Assembly: GCA_032986305.1 (NCBI GenBank)
Contig: GCA_032986305.1_3672.1
Reading direction: 5' to 3' (one strand)
Source of the DNA: a phage
DNA: 64,000 nucleotides
Positions 6,874 to 64,000 of the stretch are shown here, piece after piece. A model generated the notes under the pieces. That model was given only the letters and a program-made list of their open reading frames with translations. It did no database searches and was not told the origin of the DNA. Numbering within the stretch: the first letter of the stretch is position 1; each line of letters begins with the position of its first letter. The position numbers were made by a program, and so were the translations under genes.

Positions 6874-7182
6874 ATGCTTAAAATTTTTATTGTTGAAGAT
6901 AAAGATATCGTCCAGTTGTATGCAAATGAGAATCACAAAGGTATGATTCTGAAGAAGGCAAAAAACCTTCATGAAAACACAATTCAACCGGGTGATGTAA
7001 TTAAGATCTGTGGTTATATGATACCAGACTCCTTGATGAAAATAACCCACCACTGGGGGTCTAATCCGTTCCTTTTTGAAAAGTATTGGGATGTTGAGTC
7101 ACTTATTGCAGAGAGTGATGATGCATTTCATTACAGCATCCAACCATCTTGCAGAATAACTAACAGGAGGGGCTTTGAGTAG
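6874..7182 (+). CDS. hypothetical protein
   Basis: 102 aa ORF with RBS AGGAGAA. Confidence 0.45.
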   Translation: MLKIFIVEDKDIVQLYANENHKGMILKKAKNLHENTIQPGDVIKICGYMIPDSLMKITHHWGSNPFLFEKYWDVESLIAESDDAFHYSIQPSCRITNRRGFE

Positions 7183-8314
7183 AGAATATCCACTTATTGA
7201 ATCTGTAGATTGTCTTGCTGATCTTCTCGAACCTGACGCTATAGTTTATTATGACTTCGACCAGGTTGCATATCAAGCTGCGGCAAGTTGTGAAAAAAGG
7301 ACAATTGAGGTAACACACAAAGCCTCCGGACGCAAGAAGATGTTTAAAACACGAACAGAGTTCTGGGGGCGGCAGAAAAACACCGTTGGTGGTTGGTTAA
7401 AAGCTGAGAATACCAACCGTGAAGCCGCATGTAAAAAGGCTGGAAAGGAGTTTATTCCGTGGACACGCGAAGATTTCGATGTCTTGGATATCCAAACCCC
7501 TGATCCTGTAGAGAACTGCTTACACACAATTAAGTGTAAAGCTAATGCAGTTCTTAACTATCTTGGTATTCCGGAAGAGCGATGTGTCGGGGTGTTGGGA
7601 GGCACAGGTAACTTCAGACTAGATCTTCCAATGCCGGAAAGATACAAAGCCAACCGTAACAATACTCTTCGACCACTGCTGCTTGGAGATGCAAGACAGT
7701 ATCTCCAAAAGCAGTATAATGCTCAAGTGATCAACGGTATCGAGGCTGACGACTGGTTAGCTATCCAGCAATTTGAAGGTTGGAACCACTACCAAAAAAC
7801 AGGAAAGTTCAACAAGTTTATTATCTCTATTGATAAGGACCAAAGAACACTACCGGGGCTTGTGTTCGATCCTATGCGAAACGATAAGGGAGATTTTGTA
7901 AGGGAAACCCCTATGCTGATCGATAACGGTATGGGGAACATCTTCATGAAGCCTAATGGAGAGGTTGGTGGTTACGGAATGCTGTTCTTCGGATACCAAA
8001 TGCTGTGTGGTGACTCTGCTGACAATATCAAGCCGTATCAAGGACTTATCGGTAAGGGTAAGTTCGGGGATGCCTCAGCATTCTACCTACTGTCTCAGTG
8101 CAGCACTCCAAAGGAGATGTGGGTGGCTATTATTGATCAGTACAAGAAGTGGTTCCCGAAAGGTGTTGTTAAGTACACTGATTTCAATGGTATTGATCGT
8201 AGAATTTCCGTAGGTCAATGGATGAGTATAATTTTTGACTGTTTGTATATGAAGCGAACATTCAATGATCAGACAAAACTTGTTAACGTTCTTAGAAATG
8301 TTGGAGCAATTTGA
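7175..8314 (+). CDS. 5'-3' exonuclease / flap endonuclease
   Basis: IEADD and GDSADNIKP motifs typical of FEN/Pol I 5' nuclease family. Confidence 0.7.
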   Translation: MSREYPLIESVDCLADLLEPDAIVYYDFDQVAYQAAASCEKRTIEVTHKASGRKKMFKTRTEFWGRQKNTVGGWLKAENTNREAACKKAGKEFIPWTREDFDVLDIQTPDPVENCLHTIKCKANAVLNYLGIPEERCVGVLGGTGNFRLDLPMPERYKANRNNTLRPLLLGDARQYLQKQYNAQVINGIEADDWLAIQQFEGWNHYQKTGKFNKFIISIDKDQRTLPGLVFDPMRNDKGDFVRETPMLIDNGMGNIFMKPNGEVGGYGMLFFGYQMLCGDSADNIKPYQGLIGKGKFGDASAFYLLSQCSTPKEMWVAIIDQYKKWFPKGVVKYTDFNGIDRRISVGQWMSIIFDCLYMKRTFNDQTKLVNVLRNVGAI

Positions 8315-13103: not shown

Positions 13104-13690
13104 TCGGAATTGATGTAGATTTGACACTGGTAGATTCAGGAACAGCATGGTGGGAGTGGTTGGAGCGTTTGTATGGTCCAGCCAGTAAGACAGTCGTTAA
13201 ACCTTCTAATGGGCTGATGTATTACGATCTGTCAAAGTATTGGCCTGATCGCCCCAAAGAAAACATCATAGGACCTTTTGATTTCTGGAGTGATCCGTTC
13301 CTCTACGACTTTCTTAAGCCTGAAGAGGGGGCTATTGAGGTTATGAAAGATTTGGTGGCTCGCGGTCACAAGCTCGCATTTATCTCGGTATGCAAGAAAG
13401 GTCACCTTGCATCTAAATCAAGGTTCTTAAAGCGCTGGACCAGTGATTTTATGGATCTGGATGATCACACCCAGGGTCACGGCTTCTACGCCACACATTT
13501 CAAAGGTAATGTGGCTGTAGATGTTATAATTGATGACAGGCATGAATACCTGAACCAATTCGCTTCACGACCTGAAGTTATTAAAATCCTAAAAGACACG
13601 CCTTATGAGCAATTCGAAGAGTTAAAGGTCAGTGTTGACTATACCGCTAATAGCTGGTATAAAATAGGAAAGTTTTTAGAAGGTATTTGA
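13097..13690 (+). CDS. HAD-family 5'-nucleotidase-like hydrolase (putative)
   Basis: N-terminal GIDVDLTL (DxDxT) and downstream IIDD. Confidence 0.45.
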   Translation: MLIGIDVDLTLVDSGTAWWEWLERLYGPASKTVVKPSNGLMYYDLSKYWPDRPKENIIGPFDFWSDPFLYDFLKPEEGAIEVMKDLVARGHKLAFISVCKKGHLASKSRFLKRWTSDFMDLDDHTQGHGFYATHFKGNVAVDVIIDDRHEYLNQFASRPEVIKILKDTPYEQFEELKVSVDYTANSWYKIGKFLEGI

Positions 13691-13691
13691 A

Positions 13692-13892
13692 ATGGGCAGA
13701 TGTTCTAAAGGTGGCGATCCTGTAGTCAGATACGGTGACTGGCTAGAGGTGTATGATCTGGGAGGTAAGCTGGTGTATGCCTCCAGGATCACCCAAGACA
13801 TGTGCTCCGATATGTTCAACAGATACCTTGCATTTAAGGCTAACATAAACCCAGACGAAATTTCCAAAATTAAAACAAGGAGAGCTAAATAA
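13692..13892 (+). CDS. hypothetical protein
   Basis: 66 aa ORF. Confidence 0.35.
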   Translation: MGRCSKGGDPVVRYGDWLEVYDLGGKLVYASRITQDMCSDMFNRYLAFKANINPDEISKIKTRRAK

Positions 13893-55328: not shown

Positions 55329-55364
55329 CCTTATACAAAAATGCCCCACCCTTTCGGGCAGGGC
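55329..55364 (-). terminator. intrinsic terminator downstream of SSB-like gene
   Basis: Minus strand GCCCUGCCC-gaaa-GGGUGGGGC then AUUUUUGUAUAA. Confidence 0.55.
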
Positions 55365-55379
55365 TATGTTAACTAATTG

Positions 55380-56606
55380 TTAAAAAGGGATGTCATCATC
55401 AAAGGAGTACTGTGCTGGATTCTGATCCATCGGGTCATCTTCCCCATCATTTACAGGAGGAGCGTCTACAGTGTTTTGCTGTGGAGCTGCTTCCTGTTTG
55501 GCAGCCTTAGGTTCTTGATGGTCAGTTGACCCAGCACCGTTCTTGATCCAATCGTACAACGGCTCAGCCAGATTAGTCAAGACATCTTTTGCTTCTGCAG
55601 TAATTGCCGCTGCAAAATCATCAACTTTCGTTTTCTTGTCAATACGGCGACAAGCGTTCAACACCGCATTACCGACACTGGCACCTACTTCATCTTCAGT
55701 TCGGTTGGTGGCTTGAGCATACTCTTTCTTAAGCTCAATGGTGACTACGTGCAGTGTTTTAGCCACGCCCAGTGGGTCGTCTACCTTAAACCCGCGATCC
55801 AGGATGATCTGCAACGCATTGATGCTATGCCCCGTTTCCACACCGATAGGGTCGTAAGAGGATTTACGCTTGCCACCAGAGCCTTGAGTGCCGTTCTCTG
55901 CCTTAGGAGGATAGGCCTTGAAACCACTGATAATGTTTCCGGTGTCTTTGTCAACAATGGCTGCAACACGACCACCTACCACCAGGTCTTTAAGCTGCTC
56001 ATCAGTTACAACCATAGCACCTTCGCCAATCTTGTGGTCATTAACAGTAACCACGTTGCCAACAATCTGAGTCACATCACCATAGATGCGTAAAACGTCC
56101 TGATTGGCATTCTGCTGAGGTTTCTGCTTCTGGCCTTGTGATTGTGCACCTTGTTGCTGTTTTTGCTGCTGAGTCGCTGCTGGAGCCTCTCCTGCACCCA
56201 GCTTGACCATCTTAGCCAGTGAGCCTTTGTAATAGGTCTTACCGTTATGCTCGTTTGCCTTCAAAGGAATATTTACGATCCATCCCGGCGTTACGGTTTC
56301 CCACTTGTCATCAATTTTAACAGAGACAGAGTCTTGATGACCAGGTTTAAGCAGCTTATCACCCATGCTGATCCAAACTTCTTCACCACCTTGAAGCAGG
56401 TTATCAGAGGAATCCAGTTCAGAAATCAGTAAAGAGATGGTGTGGCTGGATTCAATTTTCTTACCTTGCCACACAGTGGTTTTAATACCTGTTGTAGGAT
56501 CAGCACCTTTGATAGGCTTGATGCTGACACGTTTAATCATGCCGTGAGCCAGTAAAACAGTTTCACGCGGATTCATCGGGTTAGCGAATTGTTGAATAAC
56601 GCTCAT
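55380..56606 (-). CDS. SSB-like protein with host-SSB-type C-terminal tip
   Basis: 408 aa; Gln-rich linker; C-terminus ...YSFDDDIPF identical to E. coli SSB tip DDDIPF. Confidence 0.55.
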   Translation of the reverse strand: MSVIQQFANPMNPRETVLLAHGMIKRVSIKPIKGADPTTGIKTTVWQGKKIESSHTISLLISELDSSDNLLQGGEEVWISMGDKLLKPGHQDSVSVKIDDKWETVTPGWIVNIPLKANEHNGKTYYKGSLAKMVKLGAGEAPAATQQQKQQQGAQSQGQKQKPQQNANQDVLRIYGDVTQIVGNVVTVNDHKIGEGAMVVTDEQLKDLVVGGRVAAIVDKDTGNIISGFKAYPPKAENGTQGSGGKRKSSYDPIGVETGHSINALQIILDRGFKVDDPLGVAKTLHVVTIELKKEYAQATNRTEDEVGASVGNAVLNACRRIDKKTKVDDFAAAITAEAKDVLTNLAEPLYDWIKNGAGSTDHQEPKAAKQEAAPQQNTVDAPPVNDGEDDPMDQNPAQYSFDDDIPF

Positions 56607-56971
56607 TATTTGTCTCCTTGTTCTTCGTTAGTGTTTGCCGTGTGTGCAAACCCTGCTTGAATTAATTTGTCCTGAACTTGAGCCAACAGCCCCATTGCAA
56701 AACTTGTGGTCCCAGAGAGGGCCATCAGCATATCTCGTTGTTGAGCTACCCAACCTAAGGCATAGTCCAAACGACGATATTTTTCTTCTTCACGCAGAGC
56801 TTGAAATAATTGTTCAGCCTCTGGTTGTTGTGTGAGCTCCTGAAGTCTTCCCATGAAAGAAGAAAGCACTAGTAGAAGAGACACTTGATCTTTACTTAAC
56901 CCTAAGAAAAATTCTTGAGGTTGTTCTTGCTCGTTCATCGCAACCGACGCTTGATCGTTCATTTGTTCCAT
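56606..56971 (-). CDS. hypothetical protein
   Basis: 121 aa; stop overlaps SSB-like start. Confidence 0.4.
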   Translation of the reverse strand: MEQMNDQASVAMNEQEQPQEFFLGLSKDQVSLLLVLSSFMGRLQELTQQPEAEQLFQALREEEKYRRLDYALGWVAQQRDMLMALSGTTSFAMGLLAQVQDKLIQAGFAHTANTNEEQGDK

Positions 56972-57054
56972 TATGGAATCTCCGATTTTATTTGAACAAC
57001 ATAGAAGGAGACACTATTTTAGCATCCCCTTCTGCAAATTACAATAGGTATTTG

Positions 57055-59784: not shown

Positions 59785-60138
59785 TTAGTGACAATCACCC
59801 CAGTTACGACCACACAAGTATTCACCTGTGATCTGGAACGGGACTCCCATCATTTTAGAAGCTTGCCAGAAGCAATGCACCACCATTTCACCCACAGGGC
59901 TCCAGATAAGTTCAAGCTTTCCGTCATCGTTCAGGATAGGATCGTACACCGTGTTTCCGTCTCTGTCAACCACCTCGTTTCCGTTTTCATCCTTGCGTGC
60001 CTTTTTGTACTTATGACCGTCGAACACATGAAGTTTGGCTTCCTGCTCTGCCTTAAATGCTTCCAGTTCTTCAATTGTGTCGAAGGTGTACACAGTCTTA
60101 TACTTAGGTGTGTCAGGGACCTGAAGTTGGTACTCATC
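59785..60138 (-). CDS. DNA polymerase (family A, T7 gp5-like), exon 2
   Basis: Begins at motif C (H)DEYQLQV; ends ...GRNWGDCH resembling recalled T7 gp5 C-terminus GPNWAICH. Confidence 0.6.
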   Translation of the reverse strand, partial: DEYQLQVPDTPKYKTVYTFDTIEELEAFKAEQEAKLHVFDGHKYKKARKDENGNEVVDRDGNTVYDPILNDDGKLELIWSPVGEMVVHCFWQASKMMGVPFQITGEYLCGRNWGDCH

Positions 60139-60414
60139 CAATAGTTCAGGTAGGTCGTTAAGCTACCCCGCACCATTACGTGCATAGCCATACGTTTTCA
60201 CGTAGGATCGGACCATCTCATATTCCTATGATAAGCAACCACAGGAATCCTCCCATTTCGACCGCACTTGCTGGTCTACTTCCTTTCGGAATGGCCTCTG
60301 AGCGTTCGCTCTTTTGAGCGCTTCGTTGCGGATTACCTTGCCATAAGGTTTAGGCTTCCCGCAGTTAAAGAGGTTATTCGACATAGATTACTCTATGAAG
60401 CCACAATGTTATTT
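60139..60414 (-). mobile_element. group I-type intron in DNA polymerase gene (ORF-less, about 276 nt)
   Basis: Separates ...IIYYH from DEYQLQV at motif C; exon 1 ends in U, intron ends in G. Confidence 0.5.
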
Positions 60415-62838
60415 ATGGTAATAAATAATACGACGAACACCTTCATCGTACCACCCACGCTTCACCATTTGGTGGTGCATGAGTATCCCAACTAAGTCAC
60501 ACAGCGATGCACCACCATTCTGTTGGTATGCATTAAGTAAAGAGTGTTTAGATCGGGTCCAGATGGCATGACCATCAAAAGAGTAGATAAACTTCTTACC
60601 CGTTGCTTCCCAGAATTTCTCCAGATCCTCTTTACGCCCCTTAAGACCAGGGTTGGCATCCCAAAGTGCATCGATTACCCTTTGTCCCAACTCTGGAGAG
60701 ATGTCCAGCATATCTGCAACTTTATCTTTTTGTGCCCCGTACATAACCCCATACGTGATAGGTTTACCGTCGTTACGGGACACCTCTCTGCCTGCTACTT
60801 TTGTATATGCCTCAGCATTGTTTTGGTGTGCGTCTCCGTTACTTACAACATCGTAATACAGGCCGTTGTCGAACTCAAAGGCACCCCAAGCCCCGATAAG
60901 CTGCTCTAAGTTGGACCCGTCGATACCGATCTCAAAGTATCCTGGAGGAACACCCCACAAGCTACGCATCTCTTTACCCATAACCACTTTAGGAGAGGGT
61001 TTAGGCATGTTTGCACAAATACTGTGTTTCTGTCTGGAAGTGTTTGTTAATCCAGAGCTTTTAGCAGGAAGCTTATGGTCAATCTTCAAGCGTGGGTGAT
61101 TAAGAAGACCAGTATCAACCTTATCCTCCTTGATCGGATCAAGGACCGATCTGCGGTTTCGCAATGATAACCACAAGACGATATCTTTAGCCATCTCTCC
61201 GTTCAATTTTTCAAGATTCGGACATAGGTGTCCAAACGTATCTTTCAGTTGCGGAGAAGTAATAAGTGCCCTAGCTTTTCTACGTATTTTCCTGAATACT
61301 TCCTTTTTAATCCTTTCGGAGTTAGGAAAGCTTCGGAACTTGTGCACAGTTGTCTGGAACTTAGCATCAGTTTTGTTCCAGAAGTTGATAATTAGGTCAC
61401 AATACTCTGACTCCAAAAGCTCGTCCATATATGCATATACTCGTGCATCAACATCTGCATCAGGTAAAGCTTTCTTCTTGCTGTCTTTAGTTACATCCTT
61501 AGTTCTCCACATTGTCGGAAGCCAGCCAGCACTGATCAGGTATCGCTTAATGTCGTCCTGGTTGCTGATTTTCATAGGTATCTTGCAGTCCGGCATTCGC
61601 TTCTGCTGTAGATCACTTATTGCCTGATCCATCAACTCTTTAGGTAAAGGGTGTGGTGTGGAAGTGCCCTTAATATAGCCTCTCAAGAAATCAGCCATCT
61701 TATCGGGGTCTTTGCATCCCATCTCTTCACACCATTTTATCCCCATCTTGCTGACATCTCCTGTAGAGGTAAATGCTCTCTTAGGCGGGGCTTTGAACTC
61801 TAAAGCGCTCATGTCTACAGGATATCCAAGCTTATCTTTTAACCATTTCCAACCATTATTAGAGATTGTCCCGTCTTGGTTAAACGGCTTTTCAGGGAAC
61901 TTGGGCCGCTGAGACATTGACAGCTCTTTTAAAGGCAGTTGTGGTTCAACACGATCAGCGATTTCTTTCATCCACGCATCGCAACGGTCACGTAAAGCAA
62001 TAGCTCCATCTATGTCGAAATATACGCCCTGACGGGCCTGCAGCTCCATCAGGAAGTGCTGCAGCATACCTCGGCGCAATGCGTTCTTCCAGGTGATCTT
62101 CTTGAACCCTTTTGGCTTCTCTTTGGCAGGATCGTACATAAAGTTCTGCATGTCAGATTTGCCGTAGAATACACCTTTTGATTCCGCTACCAGCTCTTTC
62201 CAGAGCAACTCCTGGATGATAACGTCCTCGAATACACGATCCACATACTTCCACAACGGAAGATCGCGCCAGTCATCAATTTGAACTTTCTGGTTACCAA
62301 GGGCGTAGCCCCATGCCATAAGGCCGTGAGGACCAACAGGCTGCATTTTCTTAGTAACCGGGTTGAATACAGCGTCCGGACAACCTTTTGGTAAAGGGCG
62401 ATCAGGCCACAAGATTCGGCTCATCGCCAACGTATCAAACAGGTTAACCTGGTGGTCGTTGATAGTCCCCATACATTTAGGATCACGGAACATATCAAAA
62501 TGAATACCGGATAATCTCTCCATCAGCATAAAGTCATAACTATAGCAGTTATGGCAGTTCAAAGCTGTTGGTGACCAGTCGGAATTGCCTGTAAGCCAAC
62601 CTTCCAACTCCGAAAAATCTGCTATGCGAACTTCAAAATCTTTATAAAGAGCTTTCTTTGCCAGAATAAAGTTCTTAGCCTTCTCTATATCCTCCTCGGA
62701 GTAGTGTGTGCGGTCATTTAGAGGGAGGAACAGCATAAAACGGTTCTTATTCAGCTCTTTAAACAGGCCGCAGTGATAATAAAGATCTGGGTCTTCCAAA
62801 AGCCCGGAGGCCTCAAAATCGAAGCTATACATGCTCAT
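60415..62838 (-). CDS. DNA polymerase (family A, T7 gp5-like), exon 1
   Basis: N-terminal exo FDFEASGLLEDPDLYYHCG like T7 VSDIEANALLESVTKFHCG; motif A GIDGSNLEQL; motif B RNDGKPITYGVMYG. Confidence 0.8.
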
Positions 62839-62896: not shown

Positions 62897-64000
62897 TTAA
62901 AAAGGCGTTTCATCATCCTCAAAACCAGGGACAGGGTCAGAGGACGGATCATCGTACTGGAGGTCTTCCTGCGTGTCAACAGGCTTAACAGTAGGAGTTA
63001 CAACCTTATCAGCCACAACCTTGCCCATAGGTGTTTCTACAACTGCATGCTCCTGATCCTCAAACATAGCCTGAGGTCTCCAAACAACCTCCCCACCTTC
63101 TCCATCTGTAAACATTTGCATTTCTTTGTCCCAGTACCAATTACTGGCATCATGGAACTTACCTGTATGTGGGTCCATAACCAAAGTGTCTGCAATACCC
63201 AATGTTTTTGCTGGGCGGTTTTTAAGACCTACTAAACGGACACGCCCACGAGAACGATCCACCATTTCTTCGGCCTCAACACCTATGACTACCCAACTCA
63301 ACTGTTCAAGCCCAGCCGATCCTCGCAAATTCTCTTTTCGCACAGGATACCAGAAAGGTAATGGGTTACCATCCTTGTCCTTAGGAGGCACAATCTCTGT
63401 ACGTTTGAGGTGAGCGATCACCAAGATAAACACGTTAAACTGCTTACAAAACGCAGCCAGCTGAGTCATAGCCATGTCCAGTTCTTTTCGCTCATCTTTA
63501 ACATTAAGCCCTGAAATTACCATAGACAGGTGATCCAGCACAATATAGCGACAATGATACAGGCAGACCATTTGCTTAAGCTTGGTAATCAACTCGTCCA
63601 CTGGAATAGACCCGAAATGTTTGAACACTTTGATTTTTCCAGCTTTTGCCCATGATTGGTGAATCTCTGCGTGTTCTTGATCAGTTAAAAACTGGCTAGG
63701 ATCTTCAACAAACTCTTTAACATCAAACCCTAGCTGGTTTGCATACAAGGAGTTAATTGCTTCCTCTGGGTCCTCCTCAAGATGGATCATGCATAGACGA
63801 TCATCCTCTTCATAGTCATCGGCCTTCGGGCATGTCGGGTCCATCAAGTATCTTGCAATACAATGTTCCAGTTTTTTAGCTACAGTTGTTTTACCGCCCC
63901 CTGATGGCCCTGTAAGCATTACGAGTGTCCCTTTGTGCAAGCCTTTTAGCATTTTTTGCAGTTTTGGAAACTCTGCGCTGATATCTACCCCGTTGGAAGT
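62897..64000 (-). CDS. primase-helicase, helicase domain (T7 gp4-like; 5' end outside window)
   Basis: Walker A GPSGGGKT; acidic C-terminal tail ending ...FEDDETPF; frame stays open to window edge. Confidence 0.7.
   Translation of the reverse strand, partial: TSNGVDISAEFPKLQKMLKGLHKGTLVMLTGPSGGGKTTVAKKLEHCIARYLMDPTCPKADDYEEDDRLCMIHLEEDPEEAINSLYANQLGFDVKEFVEDPSQFLTDQEHAEIHQSWAKAGKIKVFKHFGSIPVDELITKLKQMVCLYHCRYIVLDHLSMVISGLNVKDERKELDMAMTQLAAFCKQFNVFILVIAHLKRTEIVPPKDKDGNPLPFWYPVRKENLRGSAGLEQLSWVVIGVEAEEMVDRSRGRVRLVGLKNRPAKTLGIADTLVMDPHTGKFHDASNWYWDKEMQMFTDGEGGEVVWRPQAMFEDQEHAVVETPMGKVVADKVVTPTVKPVDTQEDLQYDDPSSDPVPGFEDDETPF

Follow-up and report, generated by a model that had tools for sequence, protein, structure and literature searches.

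An SSB-like protein of the phrog_4477 family in a Vequintavirus genome: domain architecture, host-identical C-terminal tip and family-wide variation

It is becoming apparent that bacterial immunity commonly uses phage SSBs as signals of infection, as in the case of retron Eco8, Hna, DARNA and DRT10. The closest described system is Bas52_0087 (QXV84166.1), a protein of phage RudolfGeigy/Bas52 (MZ501102), which a preprint of 30 April 2026 presents as SSB-like: it is said there to have two OB folds and to end in a disordered C-terminus whose FDDDIPF tip resembles that of E. coli SSB (bioRxiv 10.64898/2026.04.29.721553). According to this preprint, the protein is labelled SSB-like by Phold, and Bas52 escapes the DRT10 (UG17) reverse-transcriptase defence through either of two substitutions in it, D252V or Y351C; an oligomerisation interface at D252 and Y351 is inferred there (10.64898/2026.04.29.721553). 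The preprint also states that Bas52_0087 is needed for DRT10 activation, that supplying a wild-type copy strengthens the defence, and that the protein alone is neither toxic nor sufficient for defence and leaves E. coli viability unaffected. It further reports that overexpression of host SbcB (ExoI) weakens DRT10 defence, and competition with SbcB has been proposed by the authors (10.64898/2026.04.29.721553). The evidence given in the preprint consists of predictions and genetics only. Tail-mediated contacts have also been described for other phage proteins. In T7, gp2.5 and gp4 each have an acidic tail terminating in Phe, and both tails contact the gp5 polymerase. For the HK620 SSB (NDYPPF) with Sak4, the last six residues are needed to load the partner onto SSB-coated ssDNA (PMC5928155).

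The window analysed here, a stretch of 64,000 nucleotides, is a Vequintavirus genome of an rV5/Murica-like E. coli phage, and its SSB-like locus is 99.3% identical to that of phage Murica. The 408-aa reading frame named in the preliminary description was recovered in the ORF listing as a complete gene and lies on the minus strand, which had been left unstated; the translated protein ends in ...PAQYSFDDDIPF*. Alignment to Bas52_0087 gives 405 identical residues out of 408, and the three differences (K367Q, A369T and G388E in the Bas52 copy) all fall within the disordered tail. D252, Y351 and FDDDIPF are shared by both proteins, and the gene is flanked by the same genes in MZ501102 as in the window. 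The window ORF is orthologous to Bas52_0087, and the core observation together with its interpretation is thus already published, on the basis of prediction and genetics. The family survey, the helicase-tail comparison and the capped-tip variants given below do not appear in the available text of the preprint (10.64898/2026.04.29.721553), and the literature search returned no other publication on the protein or its family. In GenBank the gene is named "hypothetical protein" in nearly all records; an SSB label is given to it or its relatives in a few (JLBYU08, KP2025, ESCO5, Mt1B1_P17 and ESCO9). Records under the name "Campylobacter phage" (about 16-20, e.g. MG065654, MG065666) share 99% identity with this E. 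coli Vequintavirus and are likely mislabelled or contaminant.

Table 1. Features of the SSB-like gene, its product and its surroundings, in window coordinates.
Feature	Position	Strand	Remarks
SSB-like protein, complete CDS	55380..56606	minus	ATG start, 408 aa + TAA stop; ORF listing
OB fold 1, SSB-type, all-beta (residues 1-139)	56190..56606	minus	full-length and domain models; presumed ssDNA-binding domain
Gln-rich disordered linker (residues 140-169)	56100..56189	minus	pLDDT <50; 13 of 30 residues Gln
Second small five-strand beta-barrel, OB-like (residues 170-235)	55902..56099	minus	model and fold search
Short linker (residues 236-251)			between middle barrel and helical domain; AlphaFold2 model
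Conserved four-helix domain, four long helices (residues 252-356)	55539..55853	minus	AlphaFold2 model
DRT10 escape positions D252 and Y351	55851-55853 (D252); 55554-55556 (Y351)	minus	both within the four-helix domain
Acidic Pro/Gln/Ala-rich disordered tail (residues 357-401)	55404..55538	minus	pLDDT <50 and composition
Tip FDDDIPF (residues 402-408)	55383..55403	minus	identical to last 7 residues of E. coli SSB
Intrinsic terminator hairpin	55343..55364	minus	9 pairs, 7 GC, then T run; strong; 16 nt past the SSB-like stop
Upstream 121-aa helical protein, phrog_7310 (unknown function)	56606..56971	minus	stop overlaps the SSB-like ATG
Promoter-like site	57016-57044		upstream of the 121-aa gene; weak evidence
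Primase-helicase acidic C-terminal tail FEDDETPF	62900..62923	minus	protein ends ...GFEDDETPF

The full-length protein was modelled with AlphaFold2 on a 28-sequence alignment (mean pLDDT 76, pTM 0.37). The low pTM is expected, because the domains are joined by flexible linkers; a separate model of residues 1-140 reached a pLDDT of 91 and a pTM of 0.83. Structure prediction had been named beforehand as the check for an OB fold, and such a fold, with SSB topology, is indeed present in the predicted structure. The Gln-rich linker described earlier was located directly behind it and is predicted to be disordered. A second domain had been announced as well; a folded region does exist after the linker, but it consists of two further folded domains rather than one, namely the middle barrel and a four-helix domain with the motifs D252-x2-G-x3-G-H-x2-N and G308-A-S-V-G312-N-A-V-L-N-A-C. 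The fold search with the full-length model returned solely OB proteins among the best 60 matches listed. Some of these matches, namely RuvA domain I, the AspRS N-domain and HIN, cover 54-63 residues at 1.5-2.1 A and do not occur in the list obtained with the N-domain, whereas archaeal RPA (3e0e) occurs in both lists with different alignments (63 residues at 1.8 A for the full-length model, 79 residues at 3.0 A for the N-domain). These matches were taken as evidence that the modelled middle barrel is itself OB-like.

The host SSB tip noted in the preliminary description extends to seven residues, as E. coli SSB likewise terminates in FDDDIPF. Its PDB chain, 1eqq_A, aligns as ...pmDFDDDIPF (its residues 152-178), and in the hhalign comparison of the SSB-like protein with E. 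coli SSB the tail is the only matching part. The net charge over residues 358-408 is -10, and the arrangement characteristic of the SSB family, a disordered linker followed by an acidic tip D-D-D-[IL]-P-F at the C-terminus, is found in the protein. The window contains 1115 stop-to-stop segments with a length of 30 aa or more; only four of them end in PF, and the pattern DD[DE][ILV]PF occurs solely in the SSB-like ORF; from typical residue frequencies, the chance expectation for the tip is estimated at about 2e-5 per window. Across the family alignment of 131 sequences, 95% of the members share Phe408 and 93% share Pro407, and D403-D405 are conserved in 71-76%. A PF ending was also seen in 110 of 147 further representatives of 50%-identity clusters, the others being mostly fragments or ending in PF plus one residue, in DF or in PW. 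Some relatives carry PPMDFDDDIPF and thereby equal E. coli SSB over 11 residues. The rarity of DD[DE][ILV]PF in the window and the family-wide conservation of the motif mean that the tip match is not due to chance.

Profile comparison assigns the protein to phrog_4477 of PHROGs v4, annotated as "unknown function", with an E-value of 5.8e-173 (residues 1-408 against positions 1-393 of a 393-position profile), and all 131 aligned relatives match this entry too. At the sequence level the OB domain does not fall under the SSB family PF00436: Pfam, including this entry, gave no match for the query, for eight relatives or for any of the 131 members. The NCBIfam search gave no match to the family either, and PDB sequence searches with the single sequence and two profiles recovered nothing except the tail. 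An exhaustive profile search puts the family at about 249 clusters at 50% identity. Two architectures can be distinguished: (i) a core form, shorter at about 270-300 aa and composed of the OB domain, the helical domain and the tail (96 of 131 members); (ii) a long form of about 380-420 aa, to which the middle barrel is added (35 of 131 members) and to which the window protein belongs. The most conserved positions are G312 (99%), G308 (95%) and G259 (94%) in the helical domain, G108 and G22 in OB1, and the terminal Phe and Pro. In the same alignment D252 is conserved in 80% of the members and Y351 is not conserved. Among cultured phages, the family is found in Vequintavirinae (Vequintavirus, Seunavirus, Mydovirus, Certrevirus), in Stephanstirmvirinae (Phapecoctavirus, Justusliebigvirus) and in similar myoviruses of about 135-153 kb infecting Pseudomonas, Acinetobacter, Serratia and others, with no further groups. 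The extent of the family and its two architectures are new here.

The SSB-like gene is located in the replication module, downstream of and on the same strand as genes for a DnaB-type primase-helicase and a family-A DNA polymerase. It has its own Shine-Dalgarno site, AGGAGA, 7 nt 5' of the ATG, and its start codon overlaps the stop of the upstream phrog_7310 gene as TAATG; through this overlap the two genes are translationally coupled, and they are probably co-transcribed. The 121-aa phrog_7310 gene is kept in Vequintavirus and Seunavirus, not family-wide, and it was rejected as an obligatory partner, as phiTE and KP2025 carry other genes at that position. In one record its product is labelled "putative SSB", with no visible support. 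No second SSB is annotated in JLBYU08, a complete and near-identical genome, and a tblastn search for a canonical SSB with the E. coli protein recovered only the tail of the SSB-like protein.

The primase-helicase of the same module likewise ends in an acidic Pro-Phe tail. The corresponding sequence is FDNDTPF in Ro1 and EC152 (Mydovirus and Seunavirus), DQDGDEPF in the Vibrio phage ICP1 and DTDEDEPF in the Vibrio phage 184E37.1 (loci examined: L012-L015). That the primase-helicase of the phage has such a conserved tail, in the manner of T7, is new here. An acidic tail with a terminal Phe (...DAEEEIWEF) was also seen on the "putative exodeoxyribonuclease" of JLBYU08 (L003 3831-4970; window 7175..8314, plus strand, 379 aa), which could be one more protein in this tail-docking scheme. 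Two further observations concern the neighbourhood and the genome at large. A group I intron was detected at window positions 60189-60424 on the minus strand (Rfam RF00028; the model is matched over its full length at 64.7 bits, with E 3.6e-15 and a gathering threshold of 50). It is flanked by the two DNA-polymerase ORFs of 809 aa (60409-62838) and 118 aa (59785-60141), the latter identified by phrog_8888 as the C-terminal polymerase part; given this position, the family-A polymerase gene appears to be interrupted by a self-splicing intron that has no ORF. At this place two separate "putative DNA polymerase" CDS are annotated in GenBank records. No tRNA was found within the 64-kb window; outside it, a 100-nt "tRNA-Stop(tta)" is annotated in the tRNA cluster of JLBYU08 (L011 31477-31576, record 129476-129575), which is possibly an ochre-suppressor-like or an intron-containing tRNA.

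A variant of the tip has been identified in 16 of 204 family clusters, where it is followed by an extension of about 15 residues with the consensus A-P-[IV]-G-L-Q-Y-[GA]-x3-[ILV]-[HY]-x-[LMI]; a capped-tip peptide of this kind reads ...DDDIPFAPIGLQYG.... In MiataMamis (L007) and in contig L005 the extension arrives with a 638-bp insert inside the final Phe codon, and this insert carries an ORF for an HNH/EndoVII-type homing endonuclease which, in MiataMamis, fills nearly all of it. In phiTE a different HNH gene directly follows the normal stop, while SSE121 and the P0048 contigs possess the extension and lack the endonuclease gene. Over the first 8 extension codons, SSE121 and L005 differ by 6 synonymous and 0 non-synonymous changes, and this restriction to synonymous differences indicates that the cap is under constraint at the protein level. 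The extension was also considered as read-through into a group I intron; this was rejected, as no Rfam intron was found in L005 2600-4000 and the MiataMamis insert is almost filled by the endonuclease ORF. A second candidate, which equates the extension with the 5' UTR and Shine-Dalgarno region of the endonuclease gene and nothing more, explains a part of it, with GGGAGG placed 9 nt before the endonuclease ATG. It was rejected as the whole story, since the cap exists in SSE121 and P0048 without an endonuclease, and it is also countered by the synonymous-only divergence between SSE121 and L005. Homing-endonuclease genes have a hot spot at the 3' end of the SSB-like gene (L005 2893-3542, the L007 insert, L010 of SSE121 at 13183-13230, L009 of phiTE at 13218-13721, and L016-L018). 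ExoI, RecQ, PriA and the chi subunit canonically bind the SSB tip through the free carboxylate of its terminal Phe. The natural occurrence of capped variants therefore argues that either the free tip is not indispensable or the cap has a role of its own. Tip variants capped by the 15-residue extension are new here.

The reading of the protein as a phage SSB or a mimic of the host one, offered in the preliminary description, is supported by the OB fold, the replication-module context and the identity and conservation of the tip. We consider it likely that the ORF encodes the phage's own working SSB, a member of the non-canonical family phrog_4477. Judging from fold and gene context, OB1, aided in the long form by the small OB2, would coat the ssDNA of a phage replisome made up of the gp4-like primase-helicase and the family-A polymerase. 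The four-helix domain may serve in self-association or partner contact, since the family is best conserved in this domain and both substitutions that permit escape from DRT10 are placed there. The acidic disordered tail of about 50 residues would present the FDDDIPF tip as in the host SSB. Because the tip is identical and, in the preprint, SbcB dosage antagonises DRT10 triggering (10.64898/2026.04.29.721553), coated phage ssDNA might either recruit host SSB-interacting enzymes or vie with host SSB for them; such enzymes would include ExoI/SbcB, RecQ, PriA, RNase HI and the chi subunit. The conserved acidic Pro-Phe tail of the primase-helicase suggests, by analogy with T7 gp2.5 and gp4, that the tail could also dock on the phage's own polymerase. 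DRT10 exploits the protein as an infection signal, as the preprint describes for the 99%-identical orthologue (10.64898/2026.04.29.721553). The analysis and the preprint together establish the fold class, the gene context, the identity and conservation of the tip and a genetic link to DRT10 and SbcB; ssDNA binding, oligomerisation and partner binding are inferred.

The docking on the polymerase could also be the main business of the tail, which would then chiefly contact the phage polymerase and primase-helicase, the identity with the host tip being secondary. The replisome is T7-like, with a DnaB-type primase-helicase and a family-A polymerase, the helicase tail is conserved over Vequintavirinae genera and the Vibrio phages ICP1 and 184E37.1, and in T7 the gp2.5 and gp4 tails share one gp5 site, with the terminal Phe required for polymerase contact. 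However, the helicase-tail consensus differs, while the SSB-like tails match the host exactly, so that this wiring is ranked as complementary to the phage-SSB reading rather than a replacement for it; as the principal role of the tail it seems rather unlikely. The exact identity of the tip can also be read in the opposite direction, as the mark of a decoy that mainly titrates host SSB-interacting proteins (ExoI, RecQ, PriA and others) and so disables repair, restart or defence, with ssDNA coating secondary. The opposition of SbcB/ExoI dosage to DRT10 triggering and the competition with SbcB suggested by the authors of the preprint point the same way (10.64898/2026.04.29.721553). Yet one or two OB folds and a helical domain are kept over about 249 clusters, beyond the needs of a tip carrier, the gene lies in the replication module of a genome without another SSB, and natural tip-capped variants occur. 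The orthologue expressed alone left E. coli viability unaffected in the preprint, against strong titration of essential partners (10.64898/2026.04.29.721553). A protein acting primarily as a decoy is accordingly judged quite improbable.

An OB fold joined to helices also recalls RecO, and the protein might have another OB function, as a recombination mediator, an annealing protein or a helicase-loading factor. To our knowledge, however, recombination mediators bind the SSB tip and do not carry one. In the fold search with the N-domain model RecO aligns over its OB part alone (68-71 residues), SSB-type domains score slightly above it, and the Phold label of the orthologue in the preprint is SSB-like (10.64898/2026.04.29.721553). 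Such a function is therefore very unlikely to be the true one. Returning to the phage's own SSB, a broader scheme can be put forward as speculation that we would ourselves call doubtful. The tail might be a regulated dual-use connector, combining a T7-like polymerase link with capture or displacement of ExoI and other host partners; the cap might act as a switch or mask of the tip, for example in evading tip-dependent defence sensing; and the four-helix domain might constitute a novel module for SSB oligomerisation or partner contact, read out by defences such as DRT10.

The family is the SSB candidate of Vequintavirinae and Stephanstirmvirinae, which are widespread therapeutic phages of E. 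coli, Klebsiella and Salmonella. Its architecture and host-identical tip offer a testable route by which phages may engage ExoI or other host enzymes and be detected by DRT10. The value of the analysis lies in a better annotation of phrog_4477 and in sharper experiments, with the protein as a target for biochemistry, and not in a new discovery.

Compared to E. coli SSB (PF00436), the protein described here is considerably longer (408 aa against 178 aa) and has no detectable sequence homology to it beyond the tail; bacterial SSB lacks both the extra small OB barrel and the conserved four-helix domain. Two OB folds per chain are also known from the Thermus/Deinococcus SSB (2cwa), where they are tandem PF00436 domains. 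In contrast to that protein, OB2 of the SSB-like protein is a minimal barrel, set off by a Gln-rich linker and missing from about three quarters of the family. The HK620 SSB resembles it in the last six residues, which are similar to DDDIPF (PMC5928155). However, HK620 SSB is a distant sequence homologue of bacterial SSB, whereas the present family is not detectably so and possesses additional domains. No sequence or specific structural similarity to T7 gp2.5 (DUF2815) was found for the SSB-like protein. As in the T7 gp2.5/gp4/gp5 system, a phage-encoded OB protein whose acidic, disordered tail terminates in Phe is accompanied by a similarly tailed, gp4-like primase-helicase and a family-A polymerase.
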